53,196 nt of DNA, taken from a virus (lineage: Duplodnaviria; Caudoviricetes). The stretch lies in the IMG/VR virus record IMGVR_UViG_3300020045_008062, positions 1 through 53,196 of that record; one strand, written 5' to 3'. This document shows positions 1 to 53,196 of the stretch, in pieces. Numbering within the stretch: position 1 is the stretch's first letter; every line of letters begins with the position of its first letter. The position numbers and the translations under genes were made by a program. The notes beneath the pieces are model-generated. The model was not told the origin of the DNA. It made no database searches and saw only the letters and a program-made list of their open reading frames with translations.

Positions 1-17
1 CCGTTACCAGTAATATT
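1..17 (+). repeat. Partial attC-like site (R' end only; window starts here)
   Basis: CC-GTTACCAGTAATATT; reverse complement matches AATACTACTGGTAAC at 265-279 (14/15). Confidence 0.8.
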
Positions 18-249
18 ACACCTGACAATGTGCATATTTACCATCTTTTAAATTTGAACACATTGTTGAAGATAATTCCCAAATTCTTTCTAAAGCGTAA
101 AAGTCTTTGTGTGTAATCCCATTATTATTGTTGTACTCCATCATTTCGTAGTACTTTTTTTCAACTTCTTTTTGAAATTCAAATACTCTTTCATTTTTTG
201 TGCCTTCTAATTGGAAGAACTCTACTGCAATTTGTTTTAGTGTTGCCAT
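16..249 (-). CDS. Cassette 1 hypothetical protein (77 aa)
   Basis: ORF fills the space between GTTA (3) and TAAC (279). Confidence 0.75.
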   Translation of the reverse strand: MATLKQIAVEFFQLEGTKNERVFEFQKEVEKKYYEMMEYNNNNGITHKDFYALERIWELSSTMCSNLKDGKYAHCQV

Positions 250-272
250 TACGTTTTTGTTTAAAATACTAC

Positions 273-403
273 TGGTAACATATGCTACACAATAGCTGGG
301 TTAATTGTTTAATTTAAAGTCTGTTTTGCACTTGAATAATTTGTCTTAAATCGATGTATGGTTTTGTGCTTAACCAGCCATCGTGTAGCATCAGCCGTTA
401 GTA
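273..403 (+). repeat. attC-like site 1
   Basis: TGGTAAC...ATGCTACACAATAGCTGG / CCAGCCATCGTGTAGCAT...GTTAGTA. Confidence 0.85.
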
Positions 404-418
404 GCAAGACTACGTTTG

Positions 419-703
419 CTACTCAAAACTACTATTGTCCACACGTTTTGAAAGTCTATCTAACTTAAACGCTTTAGTTTCATCTACTCTTGATTGTACC
501 GATGGAAACATATATTTTATTTGTTCAATCATAATTTCAACATCTGCTATTTCTCCGCACATATCAACAAATCTTTCTTCTGTTGAGTTTCTTACGAATT
601 TTCTAACGGCTAATGCTAATTCCGTAGCTTCTTCTTGAGCCATTTCTAATTGAGCTGTTTGCCCCCATTTTTCAATTGTTTTTTTGTAAATTTCGTTTGA
701 CAT
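419..703 (-). CDS. Cassette 2 MazG-like nucleotide pyrophosphohydrolase
   Basis: QEEATEL...GEIADV acidic helical motifs of the MazG-like/all-alpha NTP-PPase superfamily. Confidence 0.75.
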   Translation of the reverse strand: MSNEIYKKTIEKWGQTAQLEMAQEEATELALAVRKFVRNSTEERFVDMCGEIADVEIMIEQIKYMFPSVQSRVDETKAFKLDRLSKRVDNSSFE

Positions 704-750
704 TTTATTTAGTTTTTATAATTAATATTCGTTTTAATGAGCCGTCCAGC

Positions 751-829
751 TACTAACACTCGCTACAAGCTAGTAGCCGAAAGTGTGTTGGCGCATAGGC
801 TACCATCTTGTAGCGAGATAACGTTATGT
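751..829 (+). repeat. attC-like site 2 (short type)
   Basis: TACTAAC-A-CTCGCTACAAG / CTTGTAGCGAG-ATAAC-GTTATGT, perfect 11-bp arm. Confidence 0.85.
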
Positions 830-847
830 GATATACTACTATTGTGG

Positions 848-1105
848 TTAAAATGGCAAACCATCGTCGATATATTTATTTTCACAACTATAAGGTATTT
901 TCATAATTAATGGCGGTTCTGGAGAAAATGAATTTGGTATATTAATTCCTTTTTGTTCCATTGTGTAAATCAAAATAGAAATATAATGATTCAATCCTCT
1001 ATCATCATAATCATCTTCGTATTGTTGTCTTGATATTTCTAAACATTCAGCTTCATTATAACAATCTCTTCCTAATACGCCTCCACAAGCTCTACAGTTT
1101 GCCAT
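848..1105 (-). CDS. Cassette 3 hypothetical protein, N-terminal Cys cluster
   Basis: CRAC...C...C; ORF fits cassette. Confidence 0.7.
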   Translation of the reverse strand: MANCRACGGVLGRDCYNEAECLEISRQQYEDDYDDRGLNHYISILIYTMEQKGINIPNSFSPEPPLIMKIPYSCENKYIDDGLPF

Positions 1106-1139
1106 TTCAATAATATTTAGTTGTTAATAATCGTACATC

Positions 1140-1274
1140 ACATAACACACGTTTGCAGTTATGGCTTATATCGTTTTTTCCTGCGGAAAAACCTCTGATA
1201 ATCTTAATTTGGGTTTGTGCTTGTTTATTTTAGTCCTGAATCCCGCCACATCTGCAAGCGTGGGAACGTTAGCA
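1140..1274 (+). repeat. attC-like site 3
   Basis: ACATAAC-A-CACGTTTGCAG / CTGCAAGCGTG-GGAAC-GTTAGCA. Confidence 0.85.
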
Positions 1275-1279
1275 AACAG

Positions 1280-1474
1280 CTACACAACATTGTCGTTAAG
1301 AAGCTTAATTGCTTTTTGAAGTTCAATTATTTCTAATTCAATATTTGCTAAATCATTTTGCAGAAATTCGTGGTCGCAAACCATTTCGCAGTTATCAAAA
1401 TCGGAATCTTTTTTATCCCATTCTTTACCTAATAATTCAATTCTTTTTTCAAGAACTTTAATTGCTTGTTTCAT
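1280..1474 (-). CDS. Cassette 4 small coiled-coil hypothetical protein
   Basis: 64-aa ORF fits cassette. Confidence 0.7.
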   Translation of the reverse strand: MKQAIKVLEKRIELLGKEWDKKDSDFDNCEMVCDHEFLQNDLANIELEIIELQKAIKLLNDNVV

Positions 1475-1498
1475 ATTTTATCTGAATAAAAGCCGATT

Positions 1499-1634
1499 TG
1501 CTAACAGTGGTTTTGCGAGATTTTCGGCACTTGGTTTAATTTAATTTTTAGTTTGTACTTGTTGTTTTTTTTGCTCAACTGAAAGATTACGCATCCTTAA
1601 CCGAAAATCCTCGCAAAGCCACGAACCGTTAGGG
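1499..1634 (+). repeat. attC-like site 4
   Basis: TGCTAAC-A-GTGGTTTTGCGAGATTTTCGG / CCGAAAATCCTCGCAAAGCCAC-GAACC-GTTAGGG. Confidence 0.85.
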
Positions 1635-1642
1635 ATAACCGC

Positions 1643-2044
1643 CTATTGGAGTCCAAAAACAGAATCTAAAAAGACAGTATCATTAGTGAATGAATCACAT
1701 TCTTTTGGCATTGGTTCTTGGTATTCAAAAGTTTCAGGATGTTTTTCTAAAGCACTTGATTTTTCAATTGAAAACGGATACATTATTTTATCAAATTTTG
1801 TGCATTTAAAAGCACTAACTTGTTTTGTTGAATATTGAGTTTCCCCATTTTCATAATCATAGCCAATTTCAAAATCAACATCAATATCTTCTCTTTCTAA
1901 AAACACACATCCATTAGTACACGCTCTGAAATTTAATGGATTGCAATTGCATTTTTCTTCGTGATTTGCCATTGCGTGTTTTCGCTTCAATTCCTTTTTA
2001 CAAAAATCACATTTGTAAATTGTAACATTTTCTATTGTTTTCAT
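1643..2044 (-). CDS. Cassette 5 Cys-rich, putative zinc-finger protein
   Basis: YKCDFCKK...HEEKC motif plus further Cys. Confidence 0.7.
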   Translation of the reverse strand: MKTIENVTIYKCDFCKKELKRKHAMANHEEKCNCNPLNFRACTNGCVFLEREDIDVDFEIGYDYENGETQYSTKQVSAFKCTKFDKIMYPFSIEKSSALEKHPETFEYQEPMPKECDSFTNDTVFLDSVFGLQ

Positions 2045-2073
2045 AAATTATAGATTAGTAATTCGTGGTATAT

Positions 2074-2207
2074 CCCTAACACGTGCTTGTATCAATGGCT
2101 TGCATCGTTTTTTCCTTCGGAAAAACCGCTGGCGGGATTAATCAGGATTTATCGGTTGTGCTTGGGTCTTGAATCTTAGCCACTGAGACAAGCACACAAC
2201 GTTATAA
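2074..2207 (+). repeat. attC-like site 5
   Basis: CCCTAAC-AC-GTGCTTGT / ACAAGCAC-ACAAC-GTTATAA. Confidence 0.85.
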
Positions 2208-2208
2208 C

Positions 2209-2415
2209 TCATTTTGCAGAACGTTTGCTAGTAACTAGTTCGGTTTTGTGAATTACTATATCTTCATTTTCAAAAGGAGTTTCAAAATTCCATCTATCGA
2301 GAGTAAATTTTGAAACTTTCAAAGTTTTTCCCCAAGTCGTGCAAAGTATTGTTAAATCCCCGTAATGAAAATGAAACCCACTTGCCTTAAATTCTAAATG
2401 ATATATCTTTCTCAT
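2209..2415 (-). CDS. Cassette 6 ORF3, hypothetical
   Basis: 68-aa ORF, stop 8 nt from GTTA. Confidence 0.7.
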   Translation of the reverse strand: MRKIYHLEFKASGFHFHYGDLTILCTTWGKTLKVSKFTLDRWNFETPFENEDIVIHKTELVTSKRSAK

Positions 2416-2573
2416 TACTTGTGATTTTTAATTAATTCAATTGCATTATTAATTTCTTTTAACTTTTGATTTCTTTGTGCAAAATCATCAGGATAATTTT
2501 CGGGTTTCCATCCTTTTAAACAATCTTCTAAAAGTTTCTTTTCTCTCTCAAGAATAAATATTGCTTCGTTCAT
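2415..2573 (-). CDS. Cassette 6 ORF2, hypothetical (52 aa, absent from ORF track)
   Basis: MNEAIFILEREKKLLEDCLKGWKPENYPDDFAQRNQKLKEINNAIELIKNHK; TAATG overlap with the next ORF. Confidence 0.65.
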   Translation of the reverse strand: MNEAIFILEREKKLLEDCLKGWKPENYPDDFAQRNQKLKEINNAIELIKNHK

Positions 2574-2579
2574 GGCTTA

Positions 2580-2792
2580 TTAAGTTAAGGCGATTATTTG
2601 ACCATTAATCCATTGGCTATAAGTTTTTGGGTTTCCAAATTTTTCTACATTATCCGAATTTCTTTTATGATATTCAGTATATCCTTTTTTTGAATCTTGT
2701 ATAAATTCCTCGAAAGATTTATAAGCATTTCTACAAGCTATAAATAGACATTTTAAATCATCTTGGTCGATAGTAAAATCAATATTTCCCAT
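2580..2792 (-). CDS. Cassette 6 ORF1, hypothetical
   Basis: 70-aa ORF downstream of an internal promoter. Confidence 0.7.
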   Translation of the reverse strand: MGNIDFTIDQDDLKCLFIACRNAYKSFEEFIQDSKKGYTEYHKRNSDNVEKFGNPKTYSQWINGQIIALT

Positions 2793-2841
2793 AATACAAA
2801 TTGTTTAGAAATTGCCGTGAATATCACTTCCTTATTTCTTT

Positions 2842-2891
2842 TACAAATATAGTAATTAATATTTGTATAAACCTAATTAAATTACAAATAT
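2842..2891 (-). promoter_or_regulatory. Cassette-internal Bacteroidota-type promoter with operator-like repeats
   Basis: TATATTTG on minus strand (2844-2851); TACAAATAT/ATATTTGTA/TACAAATAT at 2842, 2859, 2883. Confidence 0.6.
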
Positions 2892-2927
2892 TATTAATAA
2901 AAATTGTAAATAAATAAAAAAAACGAG

Positions 2928-3058
2928 TGATAACAACGGTTTGGAGCGATTGCAAGATTAGGATTTACTCGAATTATTAGAAAGAAAATTAAAAACTGTC
3001 TTGTACTTTTAAAAATAGTCTTGAATTTTTGCAACCGCACCAAGCCGATACGTTACCA
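2928..3058 (+). repeat. attC-like site 6
   Basis: TGATAAC-AA-CGGTTTGG / CCAAGCCG-ATAC-GTTACCA. Confidence 0.8.
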
Positions 3059-3064
3059 GTAATG

Positions 3065-3391
3065 CTACGAAACCTGCTCAACAACCTTTATTTTTTGTCT
3101 TTTTGTCTCCCAATCTCTCATTGCTATTATTTTAGCATCAAAATATACTCTCTGTTTATTATTACAGACCACATAAGCTATGTAATGTGTTTTTTCTGCG
3201 TAGTAATCTTTTAAAGCTATTACAGGAAAATCTTTTTCACTTCCTTCAGTGCCTTCCATCACAACTACGTGATACATATAATAATTTCTATTTCTTGACC
3301 TGAAATGAAATACTTTCAATAAATCTCCAACTAATATTTGTTTTCCAGATTGGTCAAAATATGTGTTGTTTTTTCTTTCTTCTAATGTCAT
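3065..3391 (-). CDS. Cassette 7 protein with YopX-like motif
   Basis: DQSGKQILVGDLL resembles the DxxGkeIyeGDil motif of phage YopX proteins. Confidence 0.55.
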   Translation of the reverse strand: MTLEERKNNTYFDQSGKQILVGDLLKVFHFRSRNRNYYMYHVVVMEGTEGSEKDFPVIALKDYYAEKTHYIAYVVCNNKQRVYFDAKIIAMRDWETKRQKIKVVEQVS

Positions 3392-3427
3392 TTTTTAAGT
3401 TTTAAATTTGTAAATAAAAAGCACTAC

Positions 3428-3504
3428 TGGTAACAATCACTATACTGCAGTTGCCGAATATACTAAACCGCATAGGCAACCGCAGTATAGTTTTAACGTT
3501 ATCA
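3428..3504 (+). repeat. attC-like site 7 (short type)
   Basis: TGGTAAC...ACTATACTGC / GCAGTATAGT...GTTATCA. Confidence 0.85.
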
Positions 3505-3510
3505 GGAATA

Positions 3511-3699
3511 CTACGATTTGTTTTCATAGATGATTTTTTCAATATCATTGGCGATTTTATCCATCATTTCAGATATTTTCAACTCATACCTTTGTTCCTC
3601 TTTATTTTCATTTATTGAACTCCAATCAAAATATTGATTTGCATATTCTTTTAATTTGTTTTTGTAATCTATTAGTTTTTGTTCTTGAATACTATTCAT
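3511..3699 (-). CDS. Cassette 8 hypothetical protein
   Basis: 62-aa ORF fits cassette. Confidence 0.7.
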   Translation of the reverse strand: MNSIQEQKLIDYKNKLKEYANQYFDWSSINENKEEQRYELKISEMMDKIANDIEKIIYENKS

Positions 3700-3729
3700 A
3701 ATATATTTAGTTTTAAATTGCCGTACTCC

Positions 3730-3865
3730 TGATAACAGTTGCTATAAGAGATTTTCGGCATAGTGATTAATCGTTTTAATTGTGTGTATTTGCGATGATT
3801 TGGCAAAGTGGAAAGATGGTTTTATACTCATCCGAAAATCCTCTTATAGCAACAATCCGTTATAG
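3730..3865 (+). repeat. attC-like site 8
   Basis: TGATAAC-A-GTTGCTATAAGAGATTTTCGG / CCGAAAATCCTCTTATAGCAAC-AATCC-GTTATAG; 21-bp arm with one extra C. Confidence 0.88.
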
Positions 3866-3894
3866 CTTATGGCTCGATTTCGGTTTTTAAGAAC

Positions 3895-4206
3895 TTAATC
3901 AAAAATATTAGCTACGTGACTTCTATATTCCTCTTCTTTAAAAATGAATAAATAAGTACTGTAAAATGGTAGCCAAATATGAAGTGTGCTTCCTGCTAAA
4001 TAGTTATAAATAGGATTTTTAAAATGGTCTATAGGGTAATCAAAATCATTTTCCCATTGCATAATTGAATAGAATATATGTTTAAATATTCCTAACAATC
4101 CAATCATTGCAATCATATAGGAAATTATATTTAACGGAAACCAAACCATTAAAGCTGTAAATAAGAAAATTATAGGGCTAACAATTATTTTAAATATTAT
4201 TTTCAT
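3895..4206 (-). CDS. Cassette 9 small membrane protein
   Basis: Long hydrophobic N-terminal segments. Confidence 0.7.
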   Translation of the reverse strand: MKIIFKIIVSPIIFLFTALMVWFPLNIISYMIAMIGLLGIFKHIFYSIMQWENDFDYPIDHFKNPIYNYLAGSTLHIWLPFYSTYLFIFKEEEYRSHVANIFD

Positions 4207-4238
4207 AACACGTTTAGTTTTTAAAAACCCACCACAAG

Positions 4239-4372
4239 CTATAACAGCAATTTGTGGTAATTCGGGTATTAGTTATTAATTTATTTTTGGTCTTGCATTT
4301 GTAAAATCTGTCTTGCATCGGTACTTTAGGATTTATTTACCCCAAACTACCACAAGTTGCAGGACGTTATCA
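4239..4372 (+). repeat. attC-like site 9
   Basis: CTATAAC-A-GCAATTTGTGGTA / TACCACAAGTTGC-AGGAC-GTTATCA. Confidence 0.85.
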
Positions 4373-4726
4373 GCAACCGCCCACAATCATCGTAAAGTGT
4401 TCACGACAAACATAAGCTGTTAAGTTATGGCGCATTCTATCGGGGTCGTCCGATGGAATTTCTTCTCCTAATTTATTGGTTGCATCTTTTCCGCAAACTG
4501 AACAAATCTCTCCTTCACAACTTCCAGAAATAAAATAAGGTGCAAATAATTCTAATGCTTTTGGTCTTTTGAAAGTATCAAATCCAATAGTTTTTGTTTG
4601 TGCATTTTGAGGAAAATAAGTATAATAATTTCTTTGAGGTATCCATCCATATTCGTCCATAAGTCCATTAGCTATGTCAAAATAATTTCCAAAAACCTCT
4701 TGTAATTTTTCTTTAGGTGGTAACAT
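4370..4726 (-). CDS. Cassette 10 protein with C-terminal CxxC...CxxH zinc-finger-like motif
   Basis: CSVC...CREH; stop codon lies inside the R' core. Confidence 0.7.
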   Translation of the reverse strand: MLPPKEKLQEVFGNYFDIANGLMDEYGWIPQRNYYTYFPQNAQTKTIGFDTFKRPKALELFAPYFISGSCEGEICSVCGKDATNKLGEEIPSDDPDRMRHNLTAYVCREHFTMIVGGC

Positions 4727-4761
4727 ATAAATAGTTTTAAAATTAGTATTAAGTGGTATGC

Positions 4762-4852
4762 TGATAACAAATGATAATGGCTATTTGCACAACCATTTTC
4801 CTCCGAAACAACTTCTGTAGTGGCAAACAGCCACTATCATCCACCGTTAGTG
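4762..4852 (+). repeat. attC-like site 10 (distal end of array)
   Basis: TGATAAC...TGATAATGGCT / AGCCACTATCA...GTTAGTG. Confidence 0.85.
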
Positions 4853-4855
4853 GCA

Positions 4856-4926
4856 ATATTCAAATGTACAAAACATACGTTTACAAATTACAAACAAAAG
4901 TAATTTATAGTAATTATAAATAGTGT
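4856..4926 (-). promoter_or_regulatory. Phage promoter pointing into the cassette array, with upstream palindromic box
   Basis: TACATTTG -7 element (4861-4868); 32 bp identical to 44205-44236; AATTTATAGTAATTATAAATA at 4902-4922. Confidence 0.7.
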
Positions 4927-5648
4927 TATTGAATATTTCCAAAATGACAAAATACATTTTCATAAATTCCTAATTCCTTGTTAATTGAATTACGCAAACG
5001 AATACGATCTTCTAAACTGTATTCGTTGTCAGATTTTTTTAATCTAATTGCGATTTTAGAAGCTAATTTATAAATCTGATGGTATTGTTCATTTGTGATG
5101 TGTAATTGCGGTGTTCGCCTCAAATCGGCTATAAAAGTCATATATTCCTGTCCATACTCTTTTACAATTCCTTCACGCAATAAACCATCATCATTTTGAA
5201 AGTGGTTTGATTGCGCGCTTTGTCTGTGGATGTTGTGTAAATTGAATCGGATTGTTTGATTGCCTCCACGCGCAAATACGTGACCTGCATCATACTTTTT
5301 TGCTGGATAATCACGAGCCAAACAATTCAAACCTTTATCAATTAATCTAACGATTAGATTTACTTTTACCTGAAGTTCTTTTGACCAATTTTTAGCAGCT
5401 TCTTTATCTTTTTTATGCTGAACTTTGTCAAATGGCTTAATTACTGGGCTTTCTTTTTCAACGGCTTTTTTTGTGATTCGCATTGCTTTATTCATATATA
5501 ATTGGCCTGCCTCGGTATCCATTAACCATTTTGGAAAACAACACATTTTCCCTAAACCAAACTTTCTGTTTTCTATTTTTACCATTTTGCCGCATCCTTC
5601 AAATCCGAATGCGGCATCTTGACCATTACATATTTTCTCTTTGATCAT
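4926..5648 (-). CDS. ninG: NinG/Rap-like recombination endonuclease
   Basis: VRLID...C...DAGH...IRFNLHNIHRQ...N motif of lambda NinG family. Confidence 0.75.
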   Translation of the reverse strand: MIKEKICNGQDAAFGFEGCGKMVKIENRKFGLGKMCCFPKWLMDTEAGQLYMNKAMRITKKAVEKESPVIKPFDKVQHKKDKEAAKNWSKELQVKVNLIVRLIDKGLNCLARDYPAKKYDAGHVFARGGNQTIRFNLHNIHRQSAQSNHFQNDDGLLREGIVKEYGQEYMTFIADLRRTPQLHITNEQYHQIYKLASKIAIRLKKSDNEYSLEDRIRLRNSINKELGIYENVFCHFGNIQ

Positions 5649-15147: not shown

Positions 15148-15444
15148 TTATTCAACTTTAAATGTTACTTCTTCACCATGTAGATACAAATTTCCTTTGT
15201 TGTCACATTTACCTCTACCTGATTTAGATTTATAAGAACTACAAAGTGATTTTTTACAATCACTTTTTTGTACGCAATCATAAATACCACACCAAATATA
15301 TTCTGATGTTCCGTTATCTGGAATTGCTTCTAAAACTGTTACTTCTGAAAGTTCGTCAATTTTACCGTCATGTAGTATGTCTTCAATTGTTTCGCAATTT
15401 GTAGAGTCTACACTTCTGAAATATAATTTAGTTTCTGTTTTCAT
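15148..15444 (-). CDS. Cys-rich hypothetical protein
   Basis: 98-aa ORF. Confidence 0.6.
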   Translation of the reverse strand: MKTETKLYFRSVDSTNCETIEDILHDGKIDELSEVTVLEAIPDNGTSEYIWCGIYDCVQKSDCKKSLCSSYKSKSGRGKCDNKGNLYLHGEEVTFKVE

Positions 15445-15884
15445 AAATATTGTTTATTATTTTCTAATTCAACTTCAATTTCCTGCATAATTGCCAAATC
15501 AGAAGGTTGTGGTAAATAAATACCAGCTTCTTTTGATGAATAATCCCTAAATCGATCAATTGCCAAAGTCATTTCATCTTTTGTCAGTTCCGCACAACTT
15601 CGTAATTCAATTCTTATTTCACCTGTTTTACGATTAATAAATTCAAATTCGAAAATGTCATGATTAACTAACTTTTTGAAAAACTCAATTTTAATATAAT
15701 CTCGTTTCTCTCCAAATTCTAAGGCGAACCAGCCTAAAATAAGATGTAAATATTTCAATTGCGGATATGTTTTTGATTTTCGCTTCTCAGTCAGTTCAAA
15801 AACCTTTTCATGCTTTATCAGAAACTTAAGTTTCTCAATTGCCCGTTGTTGATCTATGAGTTTTGATCCGTTGTAAATTGCCAT
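15441..15884 (-). CDS. NinB/Orf-like recombination accessory protein
   Basis: KT..QLKYLH...RSCAELTKDEMTLAID...GIYLPQP. Confidence 0.6.
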   Translation of the reverse strand: MAIYNGSKLIDQQRAIEKLKFLIKHEKVFELTEKRKSKTYPQLKYLHLILGWFALEFGEKRDYIKIEFFKKLVNHDIFEFEFINRKTGEIRIELRSCAELTKDEMTLAIDRFRDYSSKEAGIYLPQPSDLAIMQEIEVELENNKQYL

Positions 15885-16198
15885 AATATTTTTTTAGAAT
15901 TATAAATATGGTTTGCGTGTTTAATAGCGGCATTATAACAATTTATTCTTTCATCATATTCTGATTCAGAAATGTATTTTTTAGGAAATTCACTTCCTAA
16001 TTGTTTTTCTTTAATTATATAATAAAACTCATTACAAGAAGTATCTATCAAAATATATATTCCAGATAAATCAAAAAAATCTATTATTCTTGTTTGTTGA
16101 AAAGATTCAGGTAATTGTAAAAATTCATCCCAATTTGAATATAATTTTTTTTCAGGATGATTTTTTGCATCATCCAAACATTTTCCCGTAAGCTCCAT
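15854..16198 (-). CDS. Hypothetical protein
   Basis: 114-aa ORF. Confidence 0.55.
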   Translation of the reverse strand: MELTGKCLDDAKNHPEKKLYSNWDEFLQLPESFQQTRIIDFFDLSGIYILIDTSCNEFYYIIKEKQLGSEFPKKYISESEYDERINCYNAAIKHANHIYNSKKILWQFTTDQNS

Positions 16199-16199
16199 A

Positions 16200-16586
16200 T
16201 TAAGTAAATTTAAGTTCTTCTTTGTTTATTGCTGAATGTAGATTTTGAAGCTCATGAACATACTCCAAATGCGTTCCTGTAATTATATGAATGAATCTTA
16301 CACCTGTAAAATAAATGGCTGAATTATCTTCAAAATTACTCAATGAATAGGTTTTTTCAACACGTCTCAATTGCTTGTAATTTGCTTTTCTTAGCCAATT
16401 TACCGATAGTGATATTGGTAAAAATTGATTAAACTCCCTTTCATGTAATAATTCTTTTTTATCGTTAAAAAAATAAGTTTTAATATAATATTTTTCAATA
16501 CCCACTATAATTTGAGGAAGTAAAGGATAATCACGGTGAATTATTAGATTACCAGGCTTTAAATTAATACTATTTAATTCAGACAT
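16200..16586 (-). CDS. Hypothetical phage protein
   Basis: PISLS..WL...YVHELQNL pattern familiar from Bacteroidota phage ORFs. Confidence 0.6.
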   Translation of the reverse strand: MSELNSINLKPGNLIIHRDYPLLPQIIVGIEKYYIKTYFFNDKKELLHEREFNQFLPISLSVNWLRKANYKQLRRVEKTYSLSNFEDNSAIYFTGVRFIHIITGTHLEYVHELQNLHSAINKEELKFT

Positions 16587-42747: not shown

Positions 42748-42794
42748 CATTGACAATTGTATACCTAATTTATCGCATACTCGCTTTATAGTTG

Positions 42795-42866
42795 TGGAAT
42801 TAACAAGAATCGAACTTGTGCATTCGGATTTTCAGTCCGGTACTCTACCAACTGAGTTATAATTCC
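42795..42866 (-). tRNA. tRNA-Phe(GAA)
   Basis: GGAATTA/TAATTCC acceptor stem, ACTC/GAGT D-stem, loop CTGAAAA, ACAAG-TTCGATT-CTTGT T-arm; no encoded CCA. Confidence 0.88.
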
Positions 42867-49877: not shown

Positions 49878-51287
49878 TTATCTTTTTAATTCAAATTCGG
49901 TTTTTTTAAAAAACCTTTTAATAACTTCTGATTTTTTAGCAGACTTTAATTTTGTTATTTGAAAATAGTCCAGCATTCCCGCAAATGACCAGTTGTCTTT
50001 TACGTAATTACCATCCGTATCAAAACCCCAAAAAGAATCTTTTTCAAAATCAATAAACATTAACCATTTTGGATACTCTTTTTTAGAATGTTTATACCAT
50101 CCTGTAATGGTTTTCTTTTCCTGTTTGCCTAATTCTTTTTCTGGTTGTTCTTTGGTTATTTTTGGAATTATCTCAGCCCATTTTCCATTCATAAAAACAC
50201 AACAATGATGTCCAAATAATAACTGATTATATGAAAATCCATTATAATAAATATCCGATTCACATGTTTTTATTCTTCCATCATTCCATAAGCTTTTAAT
50301 ACAAAGCCCTTCTTTATAACCTCTCTTAACAGCCTCATTCTTCAAAGCTTCTAAAACTTCTAATTCATTGGCTGCATAATCATCATTAGAAATTTCGCCA
50401 TCATTACCATCAAACCAATTACCCTCACATGATATTCCATATTTAATAACTCCCTGTTCTGAATATCCTAAATATTTTTCGTTTAATGGTGATTTTATTT
50501 TAATCCATCCTGTAAAAAACTTAGATAACGGTATTTTTTTTAAATCACTACCAGAAATAGGCAATTCAACTTCATTAATTTTCCTTTCGTCTATAGTTCC
50601 TTTTAAAATAGTTTCCTTTTCGGCTTCTAGTTCTTCGATGCGTAGTTTTAGTTTGGTGTTTTGTTCCCTTAAAAAATCTAATTCCATTAGGCCATTAAAA
50701 GTAGTAATGTAGTGTTGTTTACCTGACCTTAAATCACCAACAGAAACAACAGATTTGTCATTCTCAAAACCCCAATCAACGCTATGACCAATAGGCTTAT
50801 AATTTTTCAATTCCTCGATTGATTTTTCAGTATTTGGAATTTCAATTTTACATTCTTTAATTGCTTTTAGAAGCAATTCGTATGATGGTGCCTTGAAAAC
50901 ATCGGTTTTAAAATCATACTTAATGGCAATCGGTTTTAAATTAGCGTCAACAGGCATATTAATAACTGAATTTTGTTTATTGTAAGCTTCCAAAACTTCT
51001 ACACGTTTTTCAAGTTCAACTAATTTGTTGGTTCTGATTGGTTTTTCAATCTTAATTCCACAAGAATTAAGAAACATTTTTTCATTCCATGTTTTGTATA
51101 ACTTAGAATCTCTGCTCATTAATATTTTGGTTGTGAATCCAAAATTGTTTGGCTTTGAATTATAATAATTAGTTAATAATGGATAGTCAGTAAACGCTCC
51201 TGTCATATCTATATAACGGAATGGTAATTTTGATTTTATAGCATTAAACTGTTCTCGTGTGCAACGCATTGCGATTGGTGTTTTCAT
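49878..51287 (-). CDS. Large modular hypothetical protein
   Basis: 469-aa ORF with coiled coils and two related TGW.K...G....G modules. Confidence 0.6.
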   Translation of the reverse strand: MKTPIAMRCTREQFNAIKSKLPFRYIDMTGAFTDYPLLTNYYNSKPNNFGFTTKILMSRDSKLYKTWNEKMFLNSCGIKIEKPIRTNKLVELEKRVEVLEAYNKQNSVINMPVDANLKPIAIKYDFKTDVFKAPSYELLLKAIKECKIEIPNTEKSIEELKNYKPIGHSVDWGFENDKSVVSVGDLRSGKQHYITTFNGLMELDFLREQNTKLKLRIEELEAEKETILKGTIDERKINEVELPISGSDLKKIPLSKFFTGWIKIKSPLNEKYLGYSEQGVIKYGISCEGNWFDGNDGEISNDDYAANELEVLEALKNEAVKRGYKEGLCIKSLWNDGRIKTCESDIYYNGFSYNQLLFGHHCCVFMNGKWAEIIPKITKEQPEKELGKQEKKTITGWYKHSKKEYPKWLMFIDFEKDSFWGFDTDGNYVKDNWSFAGMLDYFQITKLKSAKKSEVIKRFFKKTEFELKR

Positions 51288-51334
51288 AATTTTACGTTTT
51301 GGATTTATTTAGGCCGTCCAAGCCGTTATTTGTT

Positions 51335-51664
51335 TTAAATATTTAACTCTAATTCAAATTGTTTTTCAGTTATTTTTATCCAACCATGATTATTTAAAAT
51401 GAATTTACACGGCTTGTTTTCATCGTAACACCTTTTATTATGGGCCATTTCCCTAGGTGTTTTTCCAAATGTTTCAAAGTAATTTACATATTTAAAATTA
51501 CCTGTTCTAACAGCATTTAAGTACTTTGCAATTTCTCTTCTGTCTGGCGGGAATGCAACGCCATCACAATGTATAAAATTTAATTTTTCATACGGTGTAA
51601 ATGATTTGTAATTATCGCATAGGTGTTTATAATTTTCAAAAAAATATTTAGCATCGTAATTCAT
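51335..51664 (-). CDS. Hypothetical protein
   Basis: ATG at 51664 gives an ATGA overlap with the upstream ORF. Confidence 0.55.
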   Translation of the reverse strand: MNYDAKYFFENYKHLCDNYKSFTPYEKLNFIHCDGVAFPPDRREIAKYLNAVRTGNFKYVNYFETFGKTPREMAHNKRCYDENKPCKFILNNHGWIKITEKQFELELNI

Positions 51665-51954
51665 ACTAATTTTATTTTTAACTCTTGAAGTATGTAATTG
51701 TGAATCCTCCAATTTACACAAAATCCATCAGGTATTTTACCGTTAATATCAACAATATTACAAACTGGTTTCTTTTCTCTATTACATGCTATTAAAACAA
51801 AATAATCATTGTGCCTATAGTAATATTCAATCTGATAAAAATCTTTAGGCTTACTATCCATATTAAGTAAATCCAGTAATTTATCAGCAGTTGTTCTAAA
51901 CGCTTCTTCTTCTATTTCTGAAAATAGACTAAGTTGGTTTTTTATTACTTTCAT
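51661..51954 (-). CDS. Hypothetical protein
   Basis: 97-aa ORF. Confidence 0.55.
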   Translation of the reverse strand: MKVIKNQLSLFSEIEEEAFRTTADKLLDLLNMDSKPKDFYQIEYYYRHNDYFVLIACNREKKPVCNIVDINGKIPDGFCVNWRIHNYILQELKIKLV

Positions 51955-52085
51955 TTTCTTTTTTATATTTTATTAACTGATTTTCCCAATATTTTAAAAG
52001 GCTTTCTGCAACTCTTTTTACTGCTGCTTTCTTTGGATTATATCCTAATTCAATTACTCTTTTTGTATGGAAGTCAATCCTTTCA

Positions 52086-52295
52086 TCAATTTCTGATTTT
52101 GTTGCCATTTATTTTGGGTTTTAGATGATTATCTAATATATTGTTAATTGCTCCTTTTGAATAATTAAAATGTTTTTTTATTTCGCTAACAGTATTATTT
52201 TTATTTGTTTTCCAGAATTCAATAATTTTTATTCTATCCAATTCATTTATTAAGGATCGGTAGGAGTGATCTTTTGAAACTTTTTTATTTGCCAT
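52086..52295 (-). CDS. Small HTH-like protein
   Basis: TVSEIKKHFNYSKGAINNIL helix-turn-helix pattern. Confidence 0.55.
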   Translation of the reverse strand: MANKKVSKDHSYRSLINELDRIKIIEFWKTNKNNTVSEIKKHFNYSKGAINNILDNHLKPKINGNKIRN

Positions 52296-52339
52296 AATCT
52301 ACAGTTTTATTGCTACTAATGGAGATTGTATTTTGCTTA

Positions 52340-53140
52340 TTATATTGCGAATTGTAAGGTTTGTAACTTTTTACTTGATGTATGGGTGTATATTTCGGTT
52401 GTTTTTCGGGAACTATGCCCTAATAAATCGCCTATCAATTTTAGATCAGTTCCTTTCTCGTATAATCCTGTTGCTGCACTATGTCGCAAAGTATGCATGT
52501 GATATTGCTTACCGAGATATTTTTTTACGATTTGGTTACAGCTTCCGGATGAATATTGAAATCCAAACTGGCCATTGAAAAGGTATTCTTTAGGCAAATA
52601 TTCGACATAATAGAGCCTGATTATTTCTCTTGTTGTTGGTGTAAGCGGTACTATTCTATCTTTTTTACCTTTGGCCGCACGAATATTTATCTGCATCATC
52701 GGGCTGTTTATATCTGACAATTTTAAATTTAAAACTTCTGAAACTCTCAATCCAACGGATGAAGTCAATGCAATTATTGCTTTGTGTTTTTTATTTTCGA
52801 TTTTATCTATCATCGAAACTAAATCAGTTACATCTATTACCAGCGGGATTTTCTTTTCTTTTTTGGCATACTGGATGTATTCAAATTTTCGGTTTTGCTT
52901 AATGGTTAATACATAAAATTTCTTTATTGCCGAATGCATTGCGTTTTGAGAATTTACTTCTTTGGCGTTTAGCAGATAGTTCTTGATTTCGTCAGCCGAT
53001 ATGTGTTTTGGGCTGTCTTTTTCTTTGAAGTAATTCAAGAATAGTTTTATTTGGCTACTATAGTTTTTTATTGTCTCTTTTGAGAAGTGAATGAAGTTCA
53101 AATCTCGCTCATAGTTTTGGATGTAGTTTGCGGAATTCAT
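52340..53140 (-). CDS. Tyrosine recombinase, integron-integrase-like
   Basis: SAM-like N-terminus (SKETIKNY); GLRVSE (R), KGKKDR (K), HTLRHS.AT (HxxR), LLGH, TTEIYTH (Y); no arm-binding domain. Confidence 0.92.
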   Translation of the reverse strand: MNSANYIQNYERDLNFIHFSKETIKNYSSQIKLFLNYFKEKDSPKHISADEIKNYLLNAKEVNSQNAMHSAIKKFYVLTIKQNRKFEYIQYAKKEKKIPLVIDVTDLVSMIDKIENKKHKAIIALTSSVGLRVSEVLNLKLSDINSPMMQINIRAAKGKKDRIVPLTPTTREIIRLYYVEYLPKEYLFNGQFGFQYSSGSCNQIVKKYLGKQYHMHTLRHSAATGLYEKGTDLKLIGDLLGHSSRKTTEIYTHTSSKKLQTLQFAI

Positions 53141-53196
53141 AGGCTTAGTTGTTGTGGTTGTTGGTTTTGTGGGTGGTTGAATAAATGTAGACGTTA
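53141..53196 (+). other. Candidate attI-like primary recombination site
   Basis: Directly upstream of the integrase start; ends AC-GTTA like the attC R' cores but has no hairpin; preceded by GGTTG-rich tract. Confidence 0.55.

Follow-up and report, generated by a model that had tools for sequence, protein, structure and literature searches.

A specialised integrase is held to be indispensable to integrons, and arrays that lack one are classed by the current detection tools as orphan clusters. In the classical systems, such as the class 1 integrons with their attI1 site and the chromosomal integron of Vibrio cholerae, new cassettes are inserted next to the recombinase gene, each of them carrying its own hairpin at the far end. 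Specifically, the insertion site attI is a double-stranded, unstructured element located beside the start of the recombinase gene, and the crossover takes place in a GTT core that is common to the cassette sites. All of these features recur in the phage locus described here. The differences concern the enzyme, which is a Xer-like protein of 266 aa scoring below the IntI models, the cassette genes, which are inverted so that a promoter at attI cannot drive them, the core, which reads CGTTA-N6-A instead of GTTRRRY, and the carrier, which is a phage. In addition, the site comprises a second conserved element and, on its gene side, direct-repeat-like stretches, which we take to be comparable to the L box and to the DR1 and DR2 repeats of attI1, respectively.

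A different layout is adopted by the integrons with an inverted integrase, found in Treponema and in other bacteria, which employ a true IntI and have attI after the end of its gene. As in the phage locus, integrase and cassette genes point the same way; in the latter, however, the site precedes the gene start, and the inversion with respect to the polarity of the hairpins concerns the cassette genes instead of the integrase. A further term of comparison is given by the Xer enzymes, which resolve chromosome dimers at one dif site and are exploited by elements such as the CTX phage through folded single strands. Among them, XerA is closest to the phage enzyme both by sequence and by solved structure, and the two are likewise small and devoid of accessory domains. 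To our knowledge, no cassette array and no attI-type site is known for Xer recombinases. The system described here is an integron-like variant, and not a member of the integron kind.

In phages, clusters of attC sites without an integrase (CALINs) have been reported, including one in the Polaribacter phage P12002L, and some of these attC sites were recombined by IntI1 in an assay, according to the accessible part of the paper (Qi et al. 2023, PMC9892861). The present locus shares with these CALINs the attC-type hairpins placed between small genes and the carriers, which are marine Bacteroidota phages. In the same accessible part (PMC9892861), phage CALINs are treated as integrase-less, neither a phage-encoded Xer-like recombinase nor an attI-type site beside it is linked to them, and the term 'XerC' occurs 0 times, whereas here comparison defines both partner and site. 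Bartlau et al. (2021, PMC8776804), in the portion of their paper that is available, interpret the presence of integrases in Freya, Ingeline and related phages as indicating temperate potential; neither 'integron' nor 'cassette' appears in that paper. A full-text literature search, within the portions of the texts it gave access to, returned no description of a Xer-type integron-like system in phages.

The locus gives such an 'orphan' phage array its missing parts, namely a putative partner enzyme belonging to the simple Xer type, an insertion site that comparison narrows down to a 5-nt core within a fixed 56-nt architecture, and whole-cassette differences between close relatives. It makes testable whether the IntI-specific segment is really required for the recombination of a folded hairpin with a double-stranded site, and cultured phage-host pairs are available as models, in particular Polaribacter phage Freya and Cellulophaga phage Ingeline. 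Moreover, it bears on the trade of small accessory genes among marine Bacteroidota phages.

The window, that is the whole stretch of DNA that was analysed, comprises 53,196 bases and coincides with a complete virus record (G000:C1:1-53196), classed as linear (no end repeats) and estimated by CheckV as 100% complete. Accordingly, its termini are true record ends and not arbitrary window cuts, a possibility that an earlier note on this DNA had named as fatal to its own reading. The G+C content of the record is about 30%, the minus strand carries nearly all genes, and the annotated functions include terminase, portal, major head protein, tape measure, endolysin, RecT, helicases and NinG. A tRNA-Phe (GAA) gene lies on the minus strand at 42794-42866, among the head genes. 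In a search of the whole window with Rfam 15, the tRNA alone stood above noise, and the attC-like sites described below matched no model.

The recombinase and its 56-nt site

The gene closest to the right end of the record (52340-53140, minus strand) encodes a tyrosine recombinase of 266 aa, recognised as Xer-like by Pfam (Phage_integrase and SAM_4), by NCBIfam and by comparison with solved structures. The motifs GLRVSE, KGKKDR, HTLRHS, GHSS and EIYTH align with the corresponding motifs of XerA (4a8e), and we take them to be the catalytic R, K, H-x-x-R, H and Y positions of tyrosine recombinases, the set of which is complete. The best NCBIfam score is that of XerA_Arch (164.5 bits, cut-off 220), with XerC at 145.4 (cut-off 335) and XerD at 134.8 (cut-off 330); that is, the cut-off of no named Xer equivalog (XerA, XerC or XerD) is reached, and the enzyme is Xer-like by fold and motifs. 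The IntI model TIGR02249 scores 124.3 bits against a cut-off of 265, and its alignment is split in two after profile position 172, where IntI has its extra segment (266 aa in the protein versus 315 profile positions), while PRK15417 scores 67.8 against a cut-off of 435. In the same way, the closest solved structures are those of XerA (4a8e and 5hxy), and IntI4 (2a3v) matches residues 15-168 only, in the N-terminal half. The extra segment that is specific to integron integrases is missing from the protein. The integrase that the earlier note places beside its candidate attI is thus a Xer-like recombinase falling under the IntI cut-off. The enzyme looks intact, as judged from its sequence, but is not an IntI. 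Catalysis by this 266-aa protein is what we infer for the system, and its activity on folded sites is an assumption, the IntI-specific segment held necessary for hairpin recombination being absent.

The closest cultured relatives of the enzyme belong to phages of marine Flavobacteriia, and one close copy was found in a bacterial bin, assigned to Bacteroidota; recombinases about 40% identical are present in 11 sampled Bacteroidota genomes. Scanning viral contigs with the integrase yielded 10 loci at 85-94% protein identity, a genome scan added one further locus, in the Bacteroidota bin, and a metagenome scan returned only two contigs, the same as L008 and L010. DNA upstream of the integrase is available for 10 loci (L003-L011 and L018), nine of them distinct (L004 equals L005 in this region), and L012 starts inside the gene. 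In all 10 loci the similarity to the window starts exactly at TAAC, read on the integrase strand (window 53196-53193), extends across the 56-nt tract and the whole gene, and is lost at the stop codon. Past GTTA, each of the nine distinct relatives carries a different cassette. In eight of these nine, the six bases past GTTA are complementary to the six ahead of the TAAC of the next hairpin; the ninth, L003, has just 116 nt past GTTA, too little to tell. The 73-nt site of L006 and the large-loop site of L018 were missed by the hairpin scan and found by eye.

Comparison of these sequences defines the anatomy of the site. The distance from the ATG of the integrase to GTTA is exactly 56 nt in 10 of 10 sequences. 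The CGTTA core (53192-53196, plus strand) is invariant in all of them, and it is here that the nucleotide homology of the relatives to the window starts; beyond GTTA, the alignment of the 10 sequences shows no conserved base except an A at +7, which is found in 9 of 9 attI junctions of the relatives. The crossover would lie inside G|TTA, TTA being common to every cassette start, and the comparative data place it within the shared CGTTA. Five nucleotides ahead of the core ends a second conserved element, TGAATAAAT (TGARTAAAT; 53178-53186, plus strand), in which positions T68, G69, A73, A75 and T76 of alignment A1 are invariant, as is G66, two bases ahead of the element. The degenerate motif TGRNTAWAT-N5-CGTTA occurs a single time in the window. 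The element is probably a second binding half-site of the recombinase, a candidate counterpart of the L box. The remaining part of the site, between the ATG and the element (53141-53177, plus strand), is a G/T-rich tract, C/A-rich on the integrase strand, that also forms the 5' leader of the integrase gene.

The earlier note had proposed the right end as a candidate attI, located 56 nt ahead of the integrase ATG and ending in GACGTTA, and had observed that, as expected for an attI, no hairpin is formed there. These points are borne out: the coordinates are as claimed, the 56-nt tract has a predicted minimum free energy of 0 kcal/mol on either strand, it adjoins the integrase start, and in 10 of 10 loci the homology breaks at GTTA, in the conserved GTT core, after which the cassettes differ in the nine distinct sequences. 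Its further suggestion that the G/T-rich tract might contain accessory integrase-binding repeats finds weak support. The 56-nt spacing is constant in all 10 sequences and the autocorrelation of the tract peaks at a lag of 12 nt (z of 5.3 versus shuffles, the sequences being related), which is consistent with repeats; on the other hand, the tract is conserved mostly in composition, with few invariant positions, and it could have no other role than that of integrase leader. Both the constant length and the richness in C and A on the coding strand could serve expression as well as binding. In the light of these data, we consider it probable that the right end of the record is the primary attI-type site of a phage integron-like cassette system employing a Xer-type tyrosine recombinase.

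The flanks of the related loci, fetched up to 6 kb on each side, contain no other homologue of a window protein. As these flanks share nothing else, the integrase and its 56-nt site constitute a module common to otherwise unrelated phages, and this integrase-plus-site platform appears to move between phage backbones. At the DNA level, the module (window 52331-53196) is 76-80% identical in L003-L011 and L018, the similarity ending at most 10 nt from the stop codon. Just after this stop codon, seven of nine relatives (L003, L004, L006, L007, L009, L010 and L011) carry a short palindrome of the TTACGG...CCGTAA type, mostly written GGTTTCCCGTAAA, which is absent in the window, in L008 and in L018. 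In L009, the end of the gene preceding the array is duplicated in inverted orientation (about 3318-3704 and upstream), and a second array of opposite polarity lies beyond; this inverted pair of arrays may be real or a mis-join at repeats.

The cassette array

The left 4.9 kb or so of the record are occupied by an array of 10 attC-like sites (276-4849, plus strand), the ends and flanks of which were read. Each site is delimited by TAAC-A at one side and C-GTTA at the other, and they map, all on the plus strand, at 276-400, 754-826, 1143-1271, 1502-1631, 2077-2204, 2931-3055, 3431-3501, 3733-3862, 4242-4369 and 4765-4849. All 10 have the AAC...GTT ends, there is one site per cassette, and the outer boxes would pair in the circular cassette, as expected of the imperfect hairpins of attC sites. 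Folded on the integrase strand, three of four sites gave z values from -4.3 to -5.5, and the site at 276-400 gave -2.5. On the far side the array meets a fixed flank (4850-5648, minus strand) that includes a NinG/Rap-like gene (4926-5648; PHROG 171).

The segments between hairpins obey a simple rule. In 10 of 10 of them, the six nucleotides following GTTA are complementary, at no fewer than five of the six bases, to the six preceding the next TAAC, and this includes the segment that starts at window position 3, where GTTA plus ccagta (3-12) faces tactgg plus TAAC (270-279). Moreover, all 11 junctions of the window have an A at +7 from GTTA, A making up 0.31 of the plus strand of the array. Since both flank complementarity and the A at +7 hold there, a cassette truly starts at the left end of the record. 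This first cassette (4-397, plus strand) consists of a minus-strand open reading frame at 16-249 and of the attC-like site at 276-400 up to the G at 397. In the window the junctions fall at 6, 400, 826, 1271, 1631, 2204, 3055, 3501, 3862, 4369 and 4849. Together with the nine of the relatives, A occupies +7 in 20 of 20 junctions, and the base at +1 after GTTA is never A. In another phage, L032, a cassette otherwise 97% identical to one of the window differs from it in the four bases just ahead of one TAAC. The A at +7 and the L032 difference together hint that the 6-7 nt beside the core may take part in strand exchange.

All cassette open reading frames lie on the minus strand and point towards the integrase, both in the window and in the cassettes read in L009 and L010. 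The genes inside the cassettes are, in other words, inverted, and the arrangement of classical integrons, with genes reading away from attI and a promoter at attI or in intI, is not found here. Cassette genes would probably be expressed by read-through from the phage replication genes rather than from a promoter at attI.

The cassette at 2204-2931 is far longer than the others, with three open reading frames (2209-2415, 2415-2573 and 2580-2792) and an A/T-rich palindromic stretch at 2840-2915. The open reading frame at 1643-2044 (minus strand) encodes a cysteine-rich protein of 133 aa, and its DNA is 92% identical to a gene of the sister record G001 (L019 353-720). There, the counterpart is located outside the array, between the homologues of window 16196-16418 and 15438-15888, in the place of the window open reading frame 15854-16198. 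This would be a possible example of exchange between a backbone gene and a cassette gene.

Sister record, polarity and cassette turnover

The closest backbone relative of the window is G001 (L019, L031), a record of 52,239 nt that matches the window backbone in blocks of 74-92% nucleotide identity, with NinG 88% identical. Both ends of G001 fall inside an array that starts after the same NinG gene and links it to the homologue of the gene adjoining the window integrase. Because this array joins both backbone ends, the two ends of the window are neighbours in the real genome, joined via the array, and the genome itself is most likely circular or circularly permuted. The first 121 nt of G001 recur at 2333-2453 with 100% identity, which stops exactly at ...CCGCTAAC, one copy continuing into a hairpin and the other into the backbone. 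Similarly, the terminal 106 nt have a second copy at L031 1637-1742; the two copies follow different cassettes, and their identity sets in exactly at the TAAC with which a hairpin begins. As these repeats show, within the limits of assembled sequence, assemblies branch at such cores. No match to the integrase was found across all 52,239 nt of G001, so that the recombinase is not always linked to the array. After its last TAAC, G001 has two small open reading frames instead of the tract and the gene. In the same record, one cassette seems to start inside the loop of its own hairpin, the DNA having been read by eye.

The direction in which a cassette is to be read was deduced from breakpoints of this kind. 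An initial cue, the TAAC directly adjoining every stop codon, favoured taking the minus strand for the top strand. In that arrangement, a cassette would be a gene followed by its hairpin on the integrase strand, and attI would lie near 4860-4925; this candidate was discarded, as TAA|C, and not the GTTA that follows the hairpin, is where the breaks fall at both boundaries of the array, in the G001 repeats and at the junction on the integrase side. The complementarity of the flanks is symmetric and cannot decide which is the integron top strand. The decision comes from the homology breakpoints: on either side the array is bounded by a break at TAA|C of the integrase strand, equivalent to G|TTA on the plus strand. 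On the plus strand, the layout is that of an integron, with the integrase pointing away, the attI-type site and then cassettes each ending in its own hairpin.

One cassette gene, the open reading frame at 4370-4726, recurs in L032, where homology extends from the TAAC before its hairpin to 4 nt short of the next TAAC, and the following hairpin is unrelated. The shared hairpin is about 77% identical, versus about 97% for the open reading frame, which makes this a weaker case; the assignment of hairpins to genes would rest mainly on G001 and on the array boundaries.

Clear evidence of whole-cassette differences is provided by L006 and L007, two loci from two samples. They are 98.1% identical over 2,457 nt comprising the integrase and what lies downstream of it, and the terminal part of the gene preceding the array is 97% identical. 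Their arrays, of 1,580 and 1,666 nt, have nothing in common, and the breakpoints lie at ...CATGG(A/G)TAA| on one side and at TAAC plus the tract on the other. Cassettes are thus mobile and occur in more than one context, as is seen from the unlike arrays of L006 and L007, from the L032 copy of 4370-4726 and from the TAAC-bounded repeats of G001. With near-identical backbones carrying different arrays, cassette turnover in this phage group is recent.

On these grounds, a working mechanism can be proposed. Circular cassettes, with the attC-like hairpin (TAAC...GTTA) folded, would recombine with the 56-nt site at G|TTA, and new cassettes would land directly beside the integrase.

The two ends of the record

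The plus strand terminates at 53196 with ...AATAAATGTAGACGTTA (in longer form, ...TGAATAAATGTAGACGTTA), 56 nt from the ATG of the integrase, and begins with CCGTTACCAG, that is with CCGTTA at a cassette boundary. As the earlier note had read them, the left end is a cassette boundary and the two ends have only CGTTA in common, preceded by A at the right and by C at the left. That cassettes may be missing between them, a further suggestion of the same note, agrees with the comparative data. The bases 1-6 (plus strand) correspond to the truncated tail of an attC-like site, CCG, plus the TTA that opens the first cassette; 4 of the 10 window attC-like sites end in CCG before TTA, and the attI-type site reads ACG in 8 of 10 sequences and GCG in 2 of 10, never CCG. 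As the left end shows the CCG that the attI-type site never has, the record probably lacks, between its ends, at least one cassette with an attC ending in CCG, provided that its first two bases are free of sequencing error.

In one public sequencing run, with which 0.10 of the sampled words were shared, the region 50200-53196 was matched just by short contigs belonging to relatives, none of them over 52700-53196, and a 22-mer of the right end and a 28-mer of the left end each had 0 exact matches among viral contigs. Of the related contigs, six have their end upstream of the integrase and another has its start within the gene, in all cases at ordinary positions and not at cores. Among the related contigs, the window and G001 are special in stopping on cores.

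The record would stop 3 nt past a crossover at the right and start 3 nt before one at the left, as a branch of the assembly graph would leave it, and we infer that such a branch at the crossover is the simplest cause of the break. The branch could arise from variation of the cassettes within the population, as the earlier note had proposed, or from duplication of a cassette in one genome, both of which would produce it. For the former, the sister record G001, with its two ends in repeats that begin or stop at TAAC, offers indirect support. A comprehensive reading can be advanced tentatively, as an attractive possibility that falls short of probable: a plain Xer-type recombinase without the IntI segment would run full integron-style capture, with TGARTAAAT-N5-CGTTA as its site and N6-A on the cassette side, the record ends would stop at live crossovers since the population had exchanged cassettes, and the module would move between unrelated backbones.

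Less likely, with an appreciable weight nonetheless, is that the attI-type boundary is real and the break has an origin other than population shuffling, namely a cassette or hairpin duplicated within one genome, or a drop in coverage. The exact internal repeats in which G001 ends (121 and 106 nt), found within one assembly, are explained by duplication as well as by population variants, and between phages the similarity of hairpins belonging to one family reaches 83%. In the window, however, no repeat longer than 12 nt adjoins the record ends, the longest being GTTACCAGTAAT at 3-14 and 3052-3063, and an ordinary repeat would leave at the ends a longer shared stretch than the 5 nt seen. Near-identical backbones with different arrays, moreover, speak for recent turnover in the group.

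More doubtful is that the right end is the attP of a temperate phage, the integrase of which would insert the whole phage at a GTTA core of the host, the record deriving from mixed integrated and free forms or being written in prophage order. As in prophages, the integrase is at the end of the record with the site beside it, and the core is also the exact point where a mixture of attP, attL and attR would make an assembly branch. The temperate potential attributed to the integrases of related cultured flavobacterial phages, in the accessible portion of the published work (PMC8776804), is in line with such a role. Against it, bacterial DNA lies past GTTA in 0 of the 10 related loci, which continue into cassettes or phage genes. 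Host-flanked copies at the core are likewise lacking among these 10 loci, and the single close copy among 401 sampled Bacteroidota genomes sits on a phage-like contig, between a phage primase and a head protease, none being found in the other 400, figures that refer to these samples only. In addition, the two ends do not make one junction, with CCG at the left and ACG at the site, and the record ends off gene boundaries, unlike what provirus trimming would give. Returning to the preferred reading, an attI-type site at the right end, it could also serve both cassette capture and phage attachment.

Finally, it is exceedingly improbable that both ends met a common pentamer by chance or are arbitrary cuts, since CGTTA is not rare (88 copies in the window on both strands, 73 +/- 8.6 expected) but a random end would meet it about once per thousand, the window is the whole record, and each end matches a junction defined independently by comparison with other loci (homology breaks, flank complementarity, A at +7), for a joint chance of about one in a million.

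The assemblies of phages of this kind tend to break or mis-join at cassette sites, and a warning in this sense is appropriate. The cultured Polaribacter phages Freya_1 to Freya_10 have integrases 34% identical to that of the window, the distance of which from the start of the record ranges between 50 and 4,147 nt; their genomes measure 43,978 to 48,920 nt. The 4.1 kb that precede the integrase in Freya_10 are complete only there, partial in Freya_5 to Freya_9 and absent in Freya_1 to Freya_4; phages of another genus, Danklef, have 38% of this stretch at 97% identity. The records of Freya_1 to Freya_4 start on the AAC core before the integrase or one base before it (query position 4098 being base 1 in Freya_1 and base 2 in Freya_2 to Freya_4; L014 position 1), and the same site may have broken these assemblies too.
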